Source: Kyrpidia sp.
GTDB taxonomy: Bacteria > Bacillota > Bacilli > Kyrpidiales > Kyrpidiaceae
DNA length: 64,000 nucleotides
Assembly: GCA_029960885.1 (NCBI GenBank)
Contig: JASBVV010000046.1
Span: forward strand, 105,895 to 169,894
Direction of reading: 5' to 3'
A model generated the notes under the pieces. The model was not told the origin of the DNA and ran no database searches. It saw only the letters and a list, made by a program, of their open reading frames with translations. The translations under genes and the position numbers were made by a program. Each line of letters opens with the position of its first letter. Within the stretch, counting starts at the first letter, position 1. This document shows, one piece after another, positions 54,280 through 59,300 of this stretch.

Positions 54280-55232
54280 TACAGCCGGCTCCAGTGAGCA
54301 TTGCGGACGGTCTCGAGGCCCCCGGCGATCAGGTGTTGGCGCAGGGTGTAATCGCTCAGCACCCGGACGATCAGCCTGGACAGCCGCTCGGGATCGCCGG
54401 GCGGCGCCAGGAGGGCGTTGTGGCCGGAGACGGCGATTTCGTCGACCCCGTCCCCGTAAACGCAGACCACCGGGGTGCCGCAGGCCATGGCTTCCAAGAC
54501 AGAGATCGGCGTTCGTTCCCCGCCGGCCGGATGCACGAACACGTCGGAGGTATTGTACAGGCCGGCCAACTGTTCATCGGTCAGCCTCCCGTGCAGCACC
54601 CACCCGTCTCCGGGCGGGCGGACGCCGCCCCGACATACGCCGTGGCATTGCAGCCCGGGCAGAATCCGCCTCGCCAGGTCCAGGGCGGCATACGCGGTCG
54701 CCAGTCCCCGAATCGGAAGGCCGGGGCCTTCCGGAGCAATGAACATGAGGACCTTTTGTGCGGGCCTCCGCTGCTGGAACTCAGGGCGGGGACGAAACAC
54801 CGACGGATCGATCCCCGGATGCAGCACCGAGGACATTTTGCCAAAATGGGCTTGAATGAGGGTTTTCAGCGATTCCGACACCGTCCAGACTACGGCGGCA
54901 TCCTGTAGAGCCCTCCTCGCCCGCTCCACATCGGCGGCGTAGGCCGGGTCGAATCGCCCGGCCAAGCGGATGACGCGGCCGCGCCCTGAAGAGAAGGCCG
55001 CATCAAAGGATTCGGCATCGGCCGCCACCGCCGCATCGGCGGGGGGCAGAGAGTCCGGCGACCCTCCCGCCATTCGGACCAGATGGCATCGAATCGGCCA
55101 ATCCACCGGCACATCCCCCGGCACCGCCACGGTGACCCGGTGGCCTGCGCTCTGAAGACCGTGAGCCAGCTCCACCACCGTCCGGGAATGGCCCCCGTGG
55201 GCCAGATCCCGAGCAAAGATCACAACCCTCAC
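54231..55232 (-). CDS. GT4-family glycosyltransferase (divergent paralogue)
   Basis: HGGHSR, HPGID and ERTPISVLEAMACG (EX7E) motifs; GTG start inferred from the RBS. Confidence 0.85.
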   Translation of the reverse strand: MRVVIFARDLAHGGHSRTVVELAHGLQSAGHRVTVAVPGDVPVDWPIRCHLVRMAGGSPDSLPPADAAVAADAESFDAAFSSGRGRVIRLAGRFDPAYAADVERARRALQDAAVVWTVSESLKTLIQAHFGKMSSVLHPGIDPSVFRPRPEFQQRRPAQKVLMFIAPEGPGLPIRGLATAYAALDLARRILPGLQCHGVCRGGVRPPGDGWVLHGRLTDEQLAGLYNTSDVFVHPAGGERTPISVLEAMACGTPVVCVYGDGVDEIAVSGHNALLAPPGDPERLSRLIVRVLSDYTLRQHLIAGGLETVRNAHWSRLYQEAARALAKAASTWR

Positions 55233-55447
55233 CGAGATCCCCCCCATCGGTTCTCGATCAACGTCCCCCCATCCAACCCCGGGACCGGCCGTCCTCCGCT
55301 CGGGCGACCCGCCACGGCGGAAGACGTTTCGTCGCTGTATGTGTACGCCGGATTCCGGGCTCCTGTGCAGGTTTCGGGCCCGGGAAGCTTGGCCAGACTG
55401 AACGGAGAGAACCATTCGGGGCCATGGGACGGAAGGTGAAAGATGAC

Positions 55448-56035
55448 ATGTCTTGGATCTGGTGGATCGTGGGCACGGTGGCCGCACCGGTGGTCCTGAC
55501 CGGGCTGGGGGTGGGCGGATTTGTCCTCTGGCGGTGGTGGCGCGGCTATATGTCCAGCTACAAATTCAAGTTTCACGACCCGAATGTCCCCTTGGACAAA
55601 AACGAAATCCGTCACAATTTCGAATTCATGATCGGTCTGGAAGTCGGGCAGGTAAAAATGTTTCGGTACCAGGCGGCCAAGCTTCGCCGGGCCAAGGCCG
55701 GCGATTACCTGGTCGCTTTCGTGGATGCGGCCGCCCGGATTGAGCACGTTCACGTGAGGCGCCTGCGGTCGCTCTATCGTGAACTGTTCGGTCGCGCGGC
55801 GCCCAGCCGGCTCGGTCATGCAGCGGGGTGGGTGACCATTCTCATGAGTGCGATGTTGCCCGAACGATGGATGGCCAAATGGGATGCCTGGTCAGAACAG
55901 TTGGCCATCGCGCATTACGAGCGCGTCGTCGCCCAGGCCCGGGAACCGGCGGTGCGCCGGATGTTTCTCGAACACGCCGCCGATGAACGGTCCCACCTGG
56001 AATTATTCAAAAAATGGGAGCTGCACGCCCAATGA
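55448..56035 (+). CDS. Membrane-anchored ferritin-like di-iron protein
   Basis: N-terminal TM; ligand pattern LEVGQ...IEHVH...SEQLAIAHY...DERSH. Confidence 0.7.
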   Translation: MSWIWWIVGTVAAPVVLTGLGVGGFVLWRWWRGYMSSYKFKFHDPNVPLDKNEIRHNFEFMIGLEVGQVKMFRYQAAKLRRAKAGDYLVAFVDAAARIEHVHVRRLRSLYRELFGRAAPSRLGHAAGWVTILMSAMLPERWMAKWDAWSEQLAIAHYERVVAQAREPAVRRMFLEHAADERSHLELFKKWELHAQ

Positions 56036-57507
56036 ACGGGTGGCCGGCTTTCCTGACCGCATCCTTGGCCGGCAGCGCCCTCAGCCTCCTGCTCGCCACC
56101 CTGATCCTGTGGCGGGGGGGCAGGCTTTTGCTCAACTTCCTCGCCGACCGCACGATGAACATCCTTTTAACCGATCCTTATCGCCATAATCTGTGGGAAT
56201 TCATCAGTGCCTCCCGCCGCTCCGGTCCCCAACTCCTCATTGAAAATTCCATGCGGGCCGCCACCGGCGAGGTGATCAAGCGGCCCATGGGATCTCCGAA
56301 ACCCTCGCCCCAGTTCGAGGCCATCTCCTTCACCCCCGCCCAGGTCAACCGGGCGGCGGCTCCGGGCATCACCGACCTCTCGGTGGTCATCGGTCCGAAA
56401 GCCGGACGTCCCTTGACCCTTCCCATCCCGATTGTGATCGGCGGCATGGGCTACGGTGTGGGCATCACCCGGGAAGTGTGGAGCGCACTTTTGGGCGGAG
56501 CGACGGCCATGGGCACGGTGGTGAACACCGGGGAAGGCACGGTGTCCCTCGAGGATGTCCGGGCGGCGGGAGGAAGATTTATCCTCCAATGGGGCCGGAC
56601 GCATTGGGCGAAACAACCGGACCTGTTACTGGCCTGCTCGGGAGTGGAAATCCATTTCGGGCAGGGGTCGTCGGCGGGCATGGGGATTCACATCCCTCCG
56701 GAAGAGTTGAAAGACGCCCGCACCCACATGAAACTGGGACCCCGGGAGTGGGGGCGCATCGGGGAGCGGTTTCCCGGCGTTCGTGGCATCGCCGATCTCG
56801 GGCGCATGGTCTCCCAACTTCGGGAAGCATCCGGCGGCGCCCCTATCGGCGGAAAAATTTCTCCCGGCGACGATATCGAAGCTTGTCTGGATACCCTGCT
56901 TCAGTGCGGCGCGGATTTCATCACCATCGACGGGGCCCAAGCCGGCACCAAGGGGAGCGAACCCATCATTGAGGACGATTTCGGCCTGCCGACCTTTTTC
57001 GCCCTGTGCCGGGCCCGGCACTATTTTGAGACCCGTCGGGTGAACGGCGTCAGTCTCATCGTTTCCGGCGGCCTGGCCACCCCGGGGCATTTTTTGAAAG
57101 CCATCGCCCTGGGGGCCACGGCCGTGGCCATTGGCACACCGGCGTTGTACGCCGTCACCCACGGCCAACTGCAAAGAGCGCTGCCGTTCGAACCGCCGAC
57201 CGAACTGGTGCTCATGACGGGCCGTCGAACCGGGGCCTTCGACCCTGTTGAGGGAGCCCGAGCCCTGGCGATGTACCTCAAATCCTGCGTGGATGAGATG
57301 GCAATGGGAATCCGGGCGATGGGCAAAGCCTCGCTCAAGGAGGTTTCCTCCGCCGACCTGTTCGCCCTGGACCCCGAAGTGGCCCGGGTGGCGGGCATTC
57401 GCTATGCCGGGGATGTCCGGGCGGATCTGTACCGGAGAAACCGATCCCGGGGACGGCGGCCCGGGACGGGTCCGCAACGGGGGGCGCGTTGGAGGGAGCG
57501 TTCATGA
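56032..57507 (+). CDS. FMN-binding glutamate-synthase-family protein (stand-alone, membrane-anchored)
   Basis: GGMGYG, NTGEG, EIHFGQG, ITIDGAQAGT, DDFGLP, SGGL and KAIALGA motifs; N-terminal hydrophobic helix. Confidence 0.85.
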   Translation: MNGWPAFLTASLAGSALSLLLATLILWRGGRLLLNFLADRTMNILLTDPYRHNLWEFISASRRSGPQLLIENSMRAATGEVIKRPMGSPKPSPQFEAISFTPAQVNRAAAPGITDLSVVIGPKAGRPLTLPIPIVIGGMGYGVGITREVWSALLGGATAMGTVVNTGEGTVSLEDVRAAGGRFILQWGRTHWAKQPDLLLACSGVEIHFGQGSSAGMGIHIPPEELKDARTHMKLGPREWGRIGERFPGVRGIADLGRMVSQLREASGGAPIGGKISPGDDIEACLDTLLQCGADFITIDGAQAGTKGSEPIIEDDFGLPTFFALCRARHYFETRRVNGVSLIVSGGLATPGHFLKAIALGATAVAIGTPALYAVTHGQLQRALPFEPPTELVLMTGRRTGAFDPVEGARALAMYLKSCVDEMAMGIRAMGKASLKEVSSADLFALDPEVARVAGIRYAGDVRADLYRRNRSRGRRPGTGPQRGARWRERS

Positions 57508-58022
57508 AAAAGAATCTGTGGCGAAACACCGTAAGACTCCGAAAGATGAGCACCCCGCAACCCGGCGGACCGCCCCTGATCACCCTGGATCAGGTGGCCA
57601 AGATCCGGCGCCGGCTGCCCCTGACCCCGGAGGAAACCCTGTACGCGCTGGCCCTGTCCGCCGATCTGCTGGAGCGCCTCATTCGGCGGCTCGACCGGCC
57701 GTTGAGCCGGGCTCGCAACAACGAGACCCGGCTCGGCTGGAACCGGATGAAGCAGCGCCTGGAAGCCCACCGGCGGCGGCTTCGCCGGCAGATGCGCCGC
57801 ATGGGCGAACCGAAGGTTCAGGTCCGCCCAACCCAAGCGCAGGTGTCCGAAACGTCTTGGAGCCATCTGTTCGCGTTGTATGAACGGCTGATCGACGGCA
57901 CCAAGGATGTCCGCCTCCGGGCGGTGCTGCTAGAAATCTGGGGCGAGACGGCGATCGGACACGGGTGGCTGGCCTCCTGGGCGGTGGACGTCGGGGATCT
58001 TGATCCGGATCTGGTTCGCTAA
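57504..58022 (+). CDS. Hypothetical basic helical protein (possible degenerate ferritin-like fold)
   Basis: ATGA overlap with the upstream gene and GGAGG RBS; LYERLIDGTKDVRLRAVLLEIWGETAIGH recalls ferritin-like helices. Confidence 0.6.
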   Translation: MKKNLWRNTVRLRKMSTPQPGGPPLITLDQVAKIRRRLPLTPEETLYALALSADLLERLIRRLDRPLSRARNNETRLGWNRMKQRLEAHRRRLRRQMRRMGEPKVQVRPTQAQVSETSWSHLFALYERLIDGTKDVRLRAVLLEIWGETAIGHGWLASWAVDVGDLDPDLVR

Positions 58023-58043: not shown

Positions 58044-58352
58044 TTATTGACCATTGAACACAATGATGACTGTGGTGGGGCGTCCGGGGATCGCCGAGCG
58101 AAACACAATCCGGGCATAACGAAGAAACAATCGCGGCACCAGAGCCACGGCGGCCTGGGGGGAGACGTCGGTGAACAGGCTGTCTTCAAGAAACGTCCCC
58201 TGGTCCGGGCTCACCTGCAAGCCCACCGTGGCCGGGTTGGTGCCGGAGTTGATCACGACAAAGGTATAGATTTCCAGACCGGCCAACTCGATAAAATTTG
58301 ATCCCTGCAGGTTATCCGTGGTGGTGTAGGTCTCGATCGATTGCCGAAACAT
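58044..58352 (-). CDS. Stand-alone DUF6385-like beta-domain protein
   Basis: YTFVVINSGTNPATVGLQVSPD...LVPRLFLRYARI is visibly homologous to the C-terminus of the 58650 protein. Confidence 0.7.
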   Translation of the reverse strand: MFRQSIETYTTTDNLQGSNFIELAGLEIYTFVVINSGTNPATVGLQVSPDQGTFLEDSLFTDVSPQAAVALVPRLFLRYARIVFRSAIPGRPTTVIIVFNGQ

Positions 58353-58649
58353 GGCAGGACCTCGTTTTCTTGACGGGAATCTGCTTCCCACTGTATGCGT
58401 CAAGGCGTGTCGGTGACCGGGCACTGCGGAATGTCGCCGTTCGCCGGCGAACTCGATGACGACTTCCGGGTGACTGCCCCATCCGTCGACCGGGTCAGCC
58501 ACATATTTTCACGCCCTTGGATTCCTGTCCAAGCCGTCGTGAATGCGCATCCGTATCCTTTCTAACAGTGGCGGCGAGAAAAGCCGGCCCACCTTCAGAG
58601 CGGCAGCCGAGCAAAAGAGCCGGCCCACACTCAGAAAGGATGATCAGAC

Positions 58650-59300
58650 TTGCCGAACTTTGCTGTTTTCAATCCCAATCCCGACGACCTGCGAGCGCTC
58701 ATTTTCGGTCAGGACAACACCAGCACCAGCCGGATTCTGGCCACCGACAGTTCCGGTAACCTGACCACCATCGCCCTGGGTGGGACCATTTCCAGCGTCC
58801 TGGGGACGACAGTCACCGCCGGCACCTTGACCAATCTGCTCGACGGCACCATCTCCGGCGTCCTGGGAGCCACCGTCACGGCGGGCACCCTGACCAATCT
58901 GCTGAACGGTACCATCTCCAGCGTCCTCGGTGCGACCGTCACCGCCGGTACCCTGAGCAGCGTCACCTCGGTTTCCCAGAAAAGTTTTGTCGAAGTGTCG
59001 TACCCGGGCACCCAAACCGCGGACACCTTCACGCCCCTCCCTCAGGTGACCACGGCCAACCTCGGCACCTATTCGTTTTTTGTGTATAACGCCGGCCCCA
59101 ACTCCGCCAACCTTCACGTGGAAATCAGCGCGGACAGCTCCCACTGGTATGTGGACCAACTGAGCACCGGTCTGGCCGCAGGGTCTGTGGATGTGCTGGT
59201 TCCAAGCCGTTTCCTGAAATACACCCGATTGTCCTACGCTTCGGCCACTGCCGGAGCACCGACCACCATCGACGTCTATTTCAACGCCCAGGGGACCTGA
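58650..59300 (+). CDS. Thr/Ser-rich repeat protein with a C-terminal DUF6385-like domain (candidate spore glycoprotein)
   Basis: TTG start after AAAGGA; MPNFAVFN N-terminus; 21-aa repeats; C-terminal YSFFVYNAGPNSANLHVEISAD...LVPSRFLKYTRLSY. Confidence 0.75.
   Translation: MPNFAVFNPNPDDLRALIFGQDNTSTSRILATDSSGNLTTIALGGTISSVLGTTVTAGTLTNLLDGTISGVLGATVTAGTLTNLLNGTISSVLGATVTAGTLSSVTSVSQKSFVEVSYPGTQTADTFTPLPQVTTANLGTYSFFVYNAGPNSANLHVEISADSSHWYVDQLSTGLAAGSVDVLVPSRFLKYTRLSYASATAGAPTTIDVYFNAQGT
58782..58955 (+). repeat. 63-bp (21-aa) tandem repeat, about 2.8 copies
   Basis: GTISSVLGTTVTAGTLTNLLD / GTISGVLGATVTAGTLTNLLN / GTISSVLGATVTAGTL. Confidence 0.92.

Follow-up and report, generated by a model that had tools for sequence, protein, structure and literature searches.

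We analysed a 64,000-nucleotide stretch of DNA (the window) from contig C45 of a spore-forming Kyrpidia sp., the genome of which is 2.04 Mb long and 86% complete and has Kyrpidia spormannii and metagenome-assembled 'Alicyclobacillaceae bacterium' genomes as its nearest named relatives, and concentrated on three co-directional genes, here called genes 1, 2 and 3, that lie between positions 55448 and 58022. Our reading of this trio, to which we assign a probability of about 0.4, is that it encodes a flavin/di-iron complex that is bound to the membrane, is specific to this lineage, includes a ferritin-like partner without activity and works in a sporulation setting. The initial annotation of the window, which was made from the sequence alone, had described three genes joined by ATGA overlaps; the coordinates and both overlaps were exact, and all three reading frames are open (Table 1).

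Gene 1 is predicted to encode a membrane-anchored di-iron protein

The product of gene 1 starts with an N-terminal transmembrane (TM) anchor (residues ~3-29), which is followed by the residues WRWWRGY, and its residues 47-195 constitute a ferritin-like di-iron domain. The start codon at position 55448 is backed by the alignment of the orthologues and by the upstream GGAAGGTGA. Comparison with Pfam showed a match to Rubrerythrin (PF02915; E 2.9e-9, 37.9 bits for a cut-off of 22.8), while the score against COQ7 (PF03232) was 17.5 bits and remained under the Pfam cut-off of 23.5. The protein gave no match to Mn_catalase (PF05067, the family of CotJC) at E <= 1, and neither a rubredoxin domain nor a Cys4 motif was found in its 195 residues, by Pfam or in the sequence itself.

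The alignment of 13 sequences (gene 1 and twelve relatives at 18-27% identity) placed the six di-iron ligands at E65, E99, H102, E150, E180 and H183, in the order E / ExxH / E / ExxH, and the residues that are invariant in this alignment are, in the numbering of gene 1, E65, Q68, E99, H102, G127, E150, A153, Y157, D179, E180 and H183. An AlphaFold 2 (AF2) model of gene 1 (predicted local distance difference test, pLDDT, 77) comprised a long helix at the N-terminus and a bundle of four helices, in which the crossover at residues 125-136 is a short hydrophobic helix. Residues 47-195 of this model could be superposed on the Dps-like protein PA4880 with a Z score of 18.2 (root-mean-square deviation 1.8 Å over 141 residues) and on bacterioferritin with a Z score of 16.6. 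The best result of a sequence search of the PDB was an encapsulated ferritin at merely E 0.06, Foldseek searches with the models of genes 1 and 3 returned nothing at E <= 0.001, and the leads from gene 1 to COQ7 and alternative oxidase were weak (Atlas scores of 0.80-0.81 for COQ7 and Foldseek E of 0.03-0.1 for the trypanosome alternative oxidase). The prediction of a di-iron site in gene 1 is well supported by the sequence and the predicted fold, and the TM anchor and di-iron pattern proposed at first annotation both held, with six conserved ligands on a ferritin-like fold.

A word-based search of 5.8 billion protein clusters recovered only four clusters for gene 1, all of them from Kyrpidia or Alicyclobacillaceae, and a profile search of 1.84 billion representatives recovered 20 proteins at E <= 0.001, most of which are 150-205 residues long. 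These distant relatives form a very rare family of ferritin-like proteins, and many of the twelve that were aligned also have an N-terminal hydrophobic segment. The distant relatives further conserve the motifs EQKAIDHY and VDEE.HAAW and an acidic C-terminal E.D(S/T)F.

Gene 2 is predicted to encode an anchored flavin barrel distinct from glutamate synthase

The product of gene 2 also begins with an N-terminal TM anchor (residues ~5-27), followed by basic residues. Its only Pfam match was the flavin mononucleotide (FMN)-binding TIM barrel PF01645 (E 2.8e-37, 129 bits for a cut-off of 20.4), and its profile matched the structures of glutamate synthase (GltS) 2vdc and 1ea0 with an E of 2.6e-18. 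The FMN phosphate-binding region is conserved between gene 2 and the GltS of A. brasilense; gene 2 contains KAIALGA, and the FMN-binding region GG..PG..LKA.ALGA is common to both proteins.

The other parts of a glutamate synthase were sought in gene 2. No amidotransferase (Ntn glutamine) domain was matched in its 491 residues by Pfam or NCBIfam, and there was no Pfam match to the C-terminal GXGXG beta-helix domain, the protein ending about 110 residues past the barrel. The GltS segment GCIMVRQCHSNTCP, which carries the three cysteines of the 3Fe-4S cluster, aligned to the cysteine-free HTQ..LPFEPPT of gene 2; an invariant H..Q..P.EPP segment replaces the cysteine loop throughout the subfamily of gene 2, in which no cysteine is invariant. 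The QGAKPGEGG of GltS, the lysine of which belongs to the active-site motif of that enzyme, corresponds to GQGSSAGMG in gene 2 and to GQGA.AG.G in the subfamily, so that the lysine is replaced. Since gene 2 is without these GltS domains, the cluster cysteines and the motif lysine, it is not a glutamate synthase, as had been concluded initially. A full-length GltB is encoded elsewhere in the same genome (a 1553-residue frame on contig C1), together with further PF01645 genes.

Judging from its sequence, gene 2 belongs to a subfamily of stand-alone, TM-anchored PF01645 proteins of the Bacillota. A search with gene 2 gave 211 matches with 40-47% identity over 85-96% of the query. The members are anchored proteins of about 470 residues, annotated as 'FMN-binding glutamate synthase family protein', with a mean column identity of 59%, and they occur in Peribacillus, Neobacillus, Cytobacillus, Priestia, Brevibacillus, Paenibacillus, Thermoactinomycetaceae, Desulfallaceae, Peptococcaceae and others. 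They share with gene 2 the same anchor, the invariant residues and the lack of Fe-S cysteines, and every residue invariant in the subfamily is kept in gene 2 (64 invariant columns including gene 2, P0002). In the tree, P0002 falls inside the subfamily and the trio barrels form a well-supported clade, which differs from the other stand-alone proteins by its long branch, by being the sole clade flanked by ferritin-like genes, and by an Arg-rich C-terminal tail of about 30 residues (~455-491; positions 57394-57507) that is absent from the other aligned members.

Gene 3 is a probable ligand-less paralogue of gene 1

No family was assigned to gene 3 by Pfam or NCBIfam, and a large protein collection held only four clusters of it, all from the same lineage. 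Comparison of the gene 3 profile with a broad profile of the gene 1 family by hhalign gave a match of 118 columns (Prob 87%, E 3.9e-6), while comparison of the shallow profiles of the two genes was not significant (Prob 3%). At the ligand positions of this alignment E65 is replaced by S52, E99 by L86, E150 by H121, E180 by T149 and H183 by G152; five of the six di-iron ligands are lost in this way and only H102 is kept, as H89. The Y157-E-R of gene 1 is also kept, as Y126-E-R. The ferritin-like bundle of gene 3 comprises residues ~40-165 and follows a basic, disordered N-terminus, and the protein has no TM segment. A language-model search gave weak leads (0.86-0.88), in which about half of the cluster members carry Rubrerythrin. 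Given the profile match and the ligand substitutions, gene 3 is a diverged, essentially ligand-less paralogue of gene 1. The profile match strengthens the earlier description of gene 3 as a ferritin-like bundle without ligands, and that a single operon encodes both an active and a predicted inactive paralogue speaks for a heteromer.

Conservation of the trio in its family

The family has three other genomes, of which two belong to the same genus and one (G003) to a second genus, and each of the three carries genes 1 and 3. Neither gene was detected in 27 genomes that represent 25 other families of the class. The order and spacing of the trio are identical in the four family genomes, with protein identities of 60-77%, and the 4-nt overlaps are kept even where their sequence has changed (GTGA then ATGA in G002; ATGA then GTGA in G003). 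The neighbours are conserved as well. On the upstream side, a divergent glycosyltransferase gene of family GT4 shares its intergenic region with gene 1 in Kyrpidia; on the downstream side lie a pair of DUF6385 genes, followed by three GT2-TPR glycosyltransferase genes, and both the pair and the three glycosyltransferase genes stand beside the trio in 4/4 family genomes. The locus is a glycosylation cluster in which DUF6385 proteins are encoded alongside GT2-TPR enzymes. The conservation of order, overlaps and neighbours in all four genomes bears out the grouping made in the initial annotation, and the trio behaves as one unit, within this family only.

That the trio occurs in only four genomes of one family would also be expected if its juxtaposition were an accident of one lineage, without common function, that persists as the genomes are close relatives. 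We regard such an accident as very improbable. Identities of 60-77% leave time for rearrangement, and the immediate neighbourhood was in fact rearranged: G003 has an insert of about 4.5 kb that separates the trio from the divergent GT4 gene (L089:10700-15100), yet the trio stayed intact beside the DUF6385 genes, with its order, overlaps and frames. Gene 3, although an orphan, is under clear constraint (77% mean column identity among the family orthologues), and two paralogous ferritin-like genes flanking a barrel gene are hard to explain by chance. The insert in G003 contains extra epimerase-like and GT2-like sugar-modifying genes, and the DUF6385 side is unchanged.

The barrel outside the family

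Several results weigh against the flavin/di-iron complex. Relatives of genes 1 and 3 were sought beside the barrel gene in 80 loci from other Bacillota (L007-L086; barrel homologues 40-47% identical, with 5-kb flanks), and a search of all open reading frames (ORFs) with phmmer and with four-sequence hidden Markov models gave no significant match. Seven metagenome loci with distant gene 1 relatives (L090-L096) contained no barrel gene, and in the loci with usable flanks these relatives were surrounded by selenocysteine, rhodanese, cytochrome and other unrelated genes. In eight other families of the class the barrel subfamily occurs on its own, without genes 1 and 3. As the barrel is common elsewhere without these genes, it works there without a di-iron partner, and the partnership of the trio is confined to one family and two genera. 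The four sets of orthologues are closely related and too few for co-variation. The best 50 structural matches of the AF2 model of gene 3 were all ferritin-like, with Z scores of 9-11.8, but this model is modest (pLDDT 64) and such scores are in a range that any helical bundle can reach. In contigs from RNA libraries of a Kyrpidia strain, genes 1 and 2 were covered thinly and in patches and gene 3 was not covered at all, which speaks neither for nor against the complex, as contigs can neither rank genes nor exclude carry-over of DNA. The initial annotation had proposed a flavin-to-di-iron redox module. Such a module is plausible for this one small family, the trio being a unit in 4/4 family genomes, whereas as a general proposal it was not supported by the 80 barrel loci and by the surroundings of the distant relatives of gene 1.

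These observations bring in a different explanation, the main rival of the complex, which we consider somewhat unlikely: the three genes could encode co-transcribed but functionally separate spore proteins, with no electrons passing between the ferritin-like proteins and the flavoprotein. The barrel would then do, in the spore membrane, the usual stand-alone job of its subfamily, and genes 1 and 3 would be protective or structural, handling metal or peroxide like CotJC, YhjR and Dps. The barrel subfamily lacks such partners in every other lineage examined, and gene 1 has its best structural counterparts among Dps-like proteins and bacterioferritins, as expected of separate functions. A scan of the 80 loci for the ligand pattern found four unrelated ferritin-like genes (in L039, L014, L062 and L078; Table 1) and one ORF without a Pfam family, none of them in the operon of the barrel, and the presence of such varied genes less than 5 kb from barrels suggests a common spore neighbourhood and not a common mechanism. 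Separate functions are harder to reconcile with the lack of a Mn_catalase (CotJC) match for gene 1 and with the position of the barrel gene between two ferritin-like paralogues. In addition, a 4-nt overlap is conserved at either end of the barrel gene, which points to synthesis that is coupled and stoichiometric, and the anchors of genes 1 and 2 are of one type, an unusual feature among ferritin-like proteins of iron storage or of the coat.

Association of the barrel subfamily with germinant receptor genes

Clustering of the flanking ORFs showed that GerAA, GerAB or GerAC genes are located less than 5 kb from the barrel gene in 39 of the 80 loci and that a DUF2071 gene adjoins it in 30. This neighbourhood was seen in at least five families (Bacillaceae, Paenibacillaceae, Peptococcaceae, Thermoactinomycetaceae and Guptibacillaceae), with the barrel placed variably relative to the receptor genes (as a fourth gene after them, divergently or upstream). 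When 200 genomes were sampled evenly across the phylum and presence of the barrel was called at E <= 1e-60, the subfamily was found in 68 of them. A strong GerA match was present in 66 of these 68 carriers compared with 162 of the 200 genomes overall, and the barrel in 2 of the 38 genomes without GerA; these counts are descriptive, as related genomes are not independent. A literature search found no paper describing a link between the barrel subfamily and germinant receptors, and nothing relevant on yerD in spores or on DUF6385.

The link of the barrel subfamily to spores is circumstantial but real. Of the possible role in spore envelope maturation put forward initially, the spore side is favoured by the 39 of 80 loci and the 66 of 68 carriers, and envelope maturation specifically is hypothetical. 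Unlike many members of the subfamily, the trio barrel is not beside GerA or DUF2071 genes, and no GerA gene was seen near either of the two barrel copies of Kyrpidia. The second copy, a paralogue of the Kyrpidia family (G000:C21:20067-21359, L098; L097:7445-9067; L099), has no ferritin-like partner and has housekeeping-like neighbours, namely genes for a glutamate dehydrogenase, an acyl-CoA synthetase/GNAT fusion, a DUF423 protein and a thioredoxin-like protein. The trio barrel did not come out as its sister in the tree, in which both clades are long-branched and the deep branches weak.

Paired barrel copies were also observed among the loci, in tandem in L015, L018, L036, L046, L047, L050, L054, L057, L059, L069 and L081 and as a divergent pair in L042, which suggests repeated local duplication of the subfamily.

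Proposed mechanism

In the complex that we favour, the products of genes 1, 2 and 3 would assemble into a small redox complex on the cytoplasmic face of the membrane. The di-iron protein of gene 1 would be anchored in the same membrane as gene 2 and in the same orientation; basic residues follow both anchors, so the catalytic domains should face inward according to the positive-inside rule. The barrel of gene 2 has no iron-sulfur cluster, so its flavin would have to exchange electrons directly with a small substrate, which would reduce or oxidise it and which, by analogy with the parent fold, is perhaps amino-acid- or 2-oxo-acid-like. Electrons of the FMN would reach the di-iron site either directly or via menaquinone, and this site would use them either for the reduction of O2 or H2O2 or, at the surface of the membrane, for the hydroxylation of a lipophilic substrate. 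Gene 3 would probably be the structural half of a heterodimer with gene 1, and the operon would be expressed during sporulation.

The small bundle of gene 1 and its nearest folds (bacterioferritin, Dps-like proteins and rubrerythrin) favour reduction of O2 or peroxide or oxidation of a quinol, and speak against an oxygenase acting on a large substrate. A lipophilic substrate would be compatible with the anchor and the hydrophobic crossover helix, by analogy with alternative oxidase or COQ7. The more specific proposal of a flavo-di-iron enzyme of a kind not seen before, in which the GltS-type barrel feeds the anchored di-iron centre, the dead paralogue stabilises it and the enzyme acts in the spore membrane as a reductase of O2 or peroxide or as a menaquinol oxidase, is one that we hold to be rather unlikely in this exact form.

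The glycosylation genes around the trio raise another explanation, that of a three-component di-iron oxygenase of the glycosylation locus, in which gene 1 would be catalytic, gene 3 structural and gene 2 only a reductase that supplies electrons. Such an enzyme would hydroxylate or cross-link a product of the adjacent glycosyltransferases, be it a sugar, a surface protein or a lipid carrier, in line with the hydroxylase or cross-linking function named in the initial annotation. The position of the trio between the GT4 gene and the DUF6385 and GT2-TPR genes in all four genomes is consistent with such an enzyme; the membrane anchor and the crossover helix at residues 125-136 would put the metal site near the membrane, and the pairing of an active with a ligand-less subunit recalls PaaA/PaaC and the alpha and beta subunits of multicomponent monooxygenases. 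We find this oxygenase quite unlikely, as the core of gene 1 has only about 145 residues, without the extra substrate-channel helices of known oxygenases, and its nearest folds are those of bacterioferritin, Dps-like proteins and rubrerythrin. In the known reductases FAD or FMN is combined with 2Fe-2S domains and with domains that bind NAD(P)H, both of which are absent from gene 2, and the parent fold of gene 2 converts a substrate and is not an electron shuttle. The distant relatives of gene 1, moreover, lie outside glycosylation loci.

Relation of the trio to known systems

The trio is a new combination within two known groups, the stand-alone GltS-type flavoenzymes and the ferritin-like di-iron proteins. 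Gene 2 agrees with GltB/GltS (1ea0, 2vdc and 1ofd) in its FMN TIM-barrel fold and in the motifs that bind the FMN phosphate, and differs from them by its membrane anchor and by the absence of the amidotransferase, central and GXGXG domains and of the 3Fe-4S cysteines. Gene 1 shares the E / ExxH / E / ExxH pattern and the fold of rubrerythrin, erythrin, bacterioferritin and Dps-like proteins (PA4880, 8w1d; D. desulfuricans bacterioferritin, 1nf4), to which it adds the TM anchor and the hydrophobic crossover helix, and it has no rubredoxin domain. It resembles alternative oxidase (3vv9) and COQ7 (7ssp) in having a predicted ferritin-like di-iron site at the membrane surface; these two proteins are monotopic, whereas gene 1 is TM-anchored.

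Heteromers of active and inactive ferritin-like subunits are known from PaaA/PaaC, from the alpha and beta subunits of bacterial multicomponent monooxygenases (BMM) and from Y2/Y4 of the yeast ribonucleotide reductase, and transfer from a flavin to a dimetal site is known from NrdI-NrdF and from the flavodiiron proteins. The trio follows the same logic, and its sequence relationship to these systems is limited to the ferritin-like fold; its flavoprotein is a GltS-type TIM barrel and not a flavodoxin or an FNR-type reductase. The flavodiiron proteins combine a di-iron domain of metallo-beta-lactamase fold with a flavodoxin domain, whereas the trio has a ferritin-like gene 1 and a TIM-barrel gene 2, and the analogy is a functional one only. 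In a comparison with PaaABCE and the multicomponent monooxygenases, the trio contains an active/inactive ferritin-like pair and no NAD(P)H reductase with FAD and 2Fe-2S, and PaaA, PaaC and BMM subunits were not among the matches listed. The cotJA-cotJB-cotJC genes of B. subtilis likewise form a small, coupled operon of three genes in a spore context, that of the spore coat, and among their products are a dimetal protein of the ferritin-like type and a helical partner of small size. The CotJ proteins differ from the trio in having neither a membrane anchor nor a flavoprotein, and gene 1 has no PF05067 match.

To our knowledge, no member of the anchored Bacillota barrel subfamily has a known substrate, and stand-alone barrels are very common in genomes. 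The overlapping di-iron partners of the Kyrpidia barrel give a concrete hypothesis for the destination of its electrons, in a tractable three-protein system. If the flavo-di-iron proposal were true, the trio would be a non-homologous analogue of the flavodiiron proteins or of alternative oxidase and the first point from which the biochemistry of the large barrel subfamily near germinant receptor genes could be approached. As about half of the loci place this subfamily beside such genes, and nearly all of its carriers have GerA, knowledge of its chemistry could reveal a redox step, so far undescribed, in the dormancy, the germination or the surface maturation of spores. Being limited to one small family, the trio would be of modest general importance unless its mechanism extends to the wider subfamily, and the link of that subfamily to spore germination receptors is the more general lead.

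Features of the locus, expression and upstream region

Table 1. Coordinates of the trio, of adjacent features of the window and of ferritin-like genes near barrel genes in other loci
Feature	Position	Strand	Remarks
Gene 1 (P0001)	55448..56035	+	195 aa
Gene 2 (P0002)	56032..57507	+	491 aa
Gene 3 (P0003)	57504..58022	+	172 aa
ATGA, gene 1 stop / gene 2 start	56032..56035	+	Read in the sequence
ATGA, gene 2 stop / gene 3 start	57504..57507	+	Read in the sequence
Short DUF6385 gene, convergent to the trio	58044..58502	-	Pfam; synteny in 4/4 family genomes
Long DUF6385 repeat-protein gene	58650..59300	+	Pfam; synteny in 4/4 family genomes
Shine-Dalgarno-like GGAAGGTGA	55431..55439	+	8 nt before the gene 1 ATG
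Conserved non-coding block, ~65 nt	55338..55403	+	Four-genome upstream alignment; divergent GT4/gene 1 region
CotJC-like Mn catalase near barrel	L062:2446-3129	-	<5 kb; PF05067 match
LysM-ferritin-like fusion near barrel	L078:8284-8994	+	<5 kb; PF05067 match
Rubrerythrin near barrel	L039:6390-6869	-	<5 kb
COQ7/ferritin-like gene near barrel	L014:10696-11148	-	<5 kb

In the contigs of two RNA libraries from one study, the orthologue of the long DUF6385 gene in K. spormannii (L087:11394-12300) had a word depth of about 30 compared with at most 7 for its neighbours, which at most hints at good expression of the gene, as contig depth cannot rank genes.

No sigma-70-type promoter was matched between positions 55000 and 58700, and comparison of the non-coding block upstream of gene 1 with the consensus sequences of sigma-E, sigma-K, sigma-F and sigma-G gave no convincing fit. 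This block is conserved between the two genera and may be a promoter or an operator, and the motif GG(C/A)GGTGA is conserved upstream of gene 1 in the four genomes.

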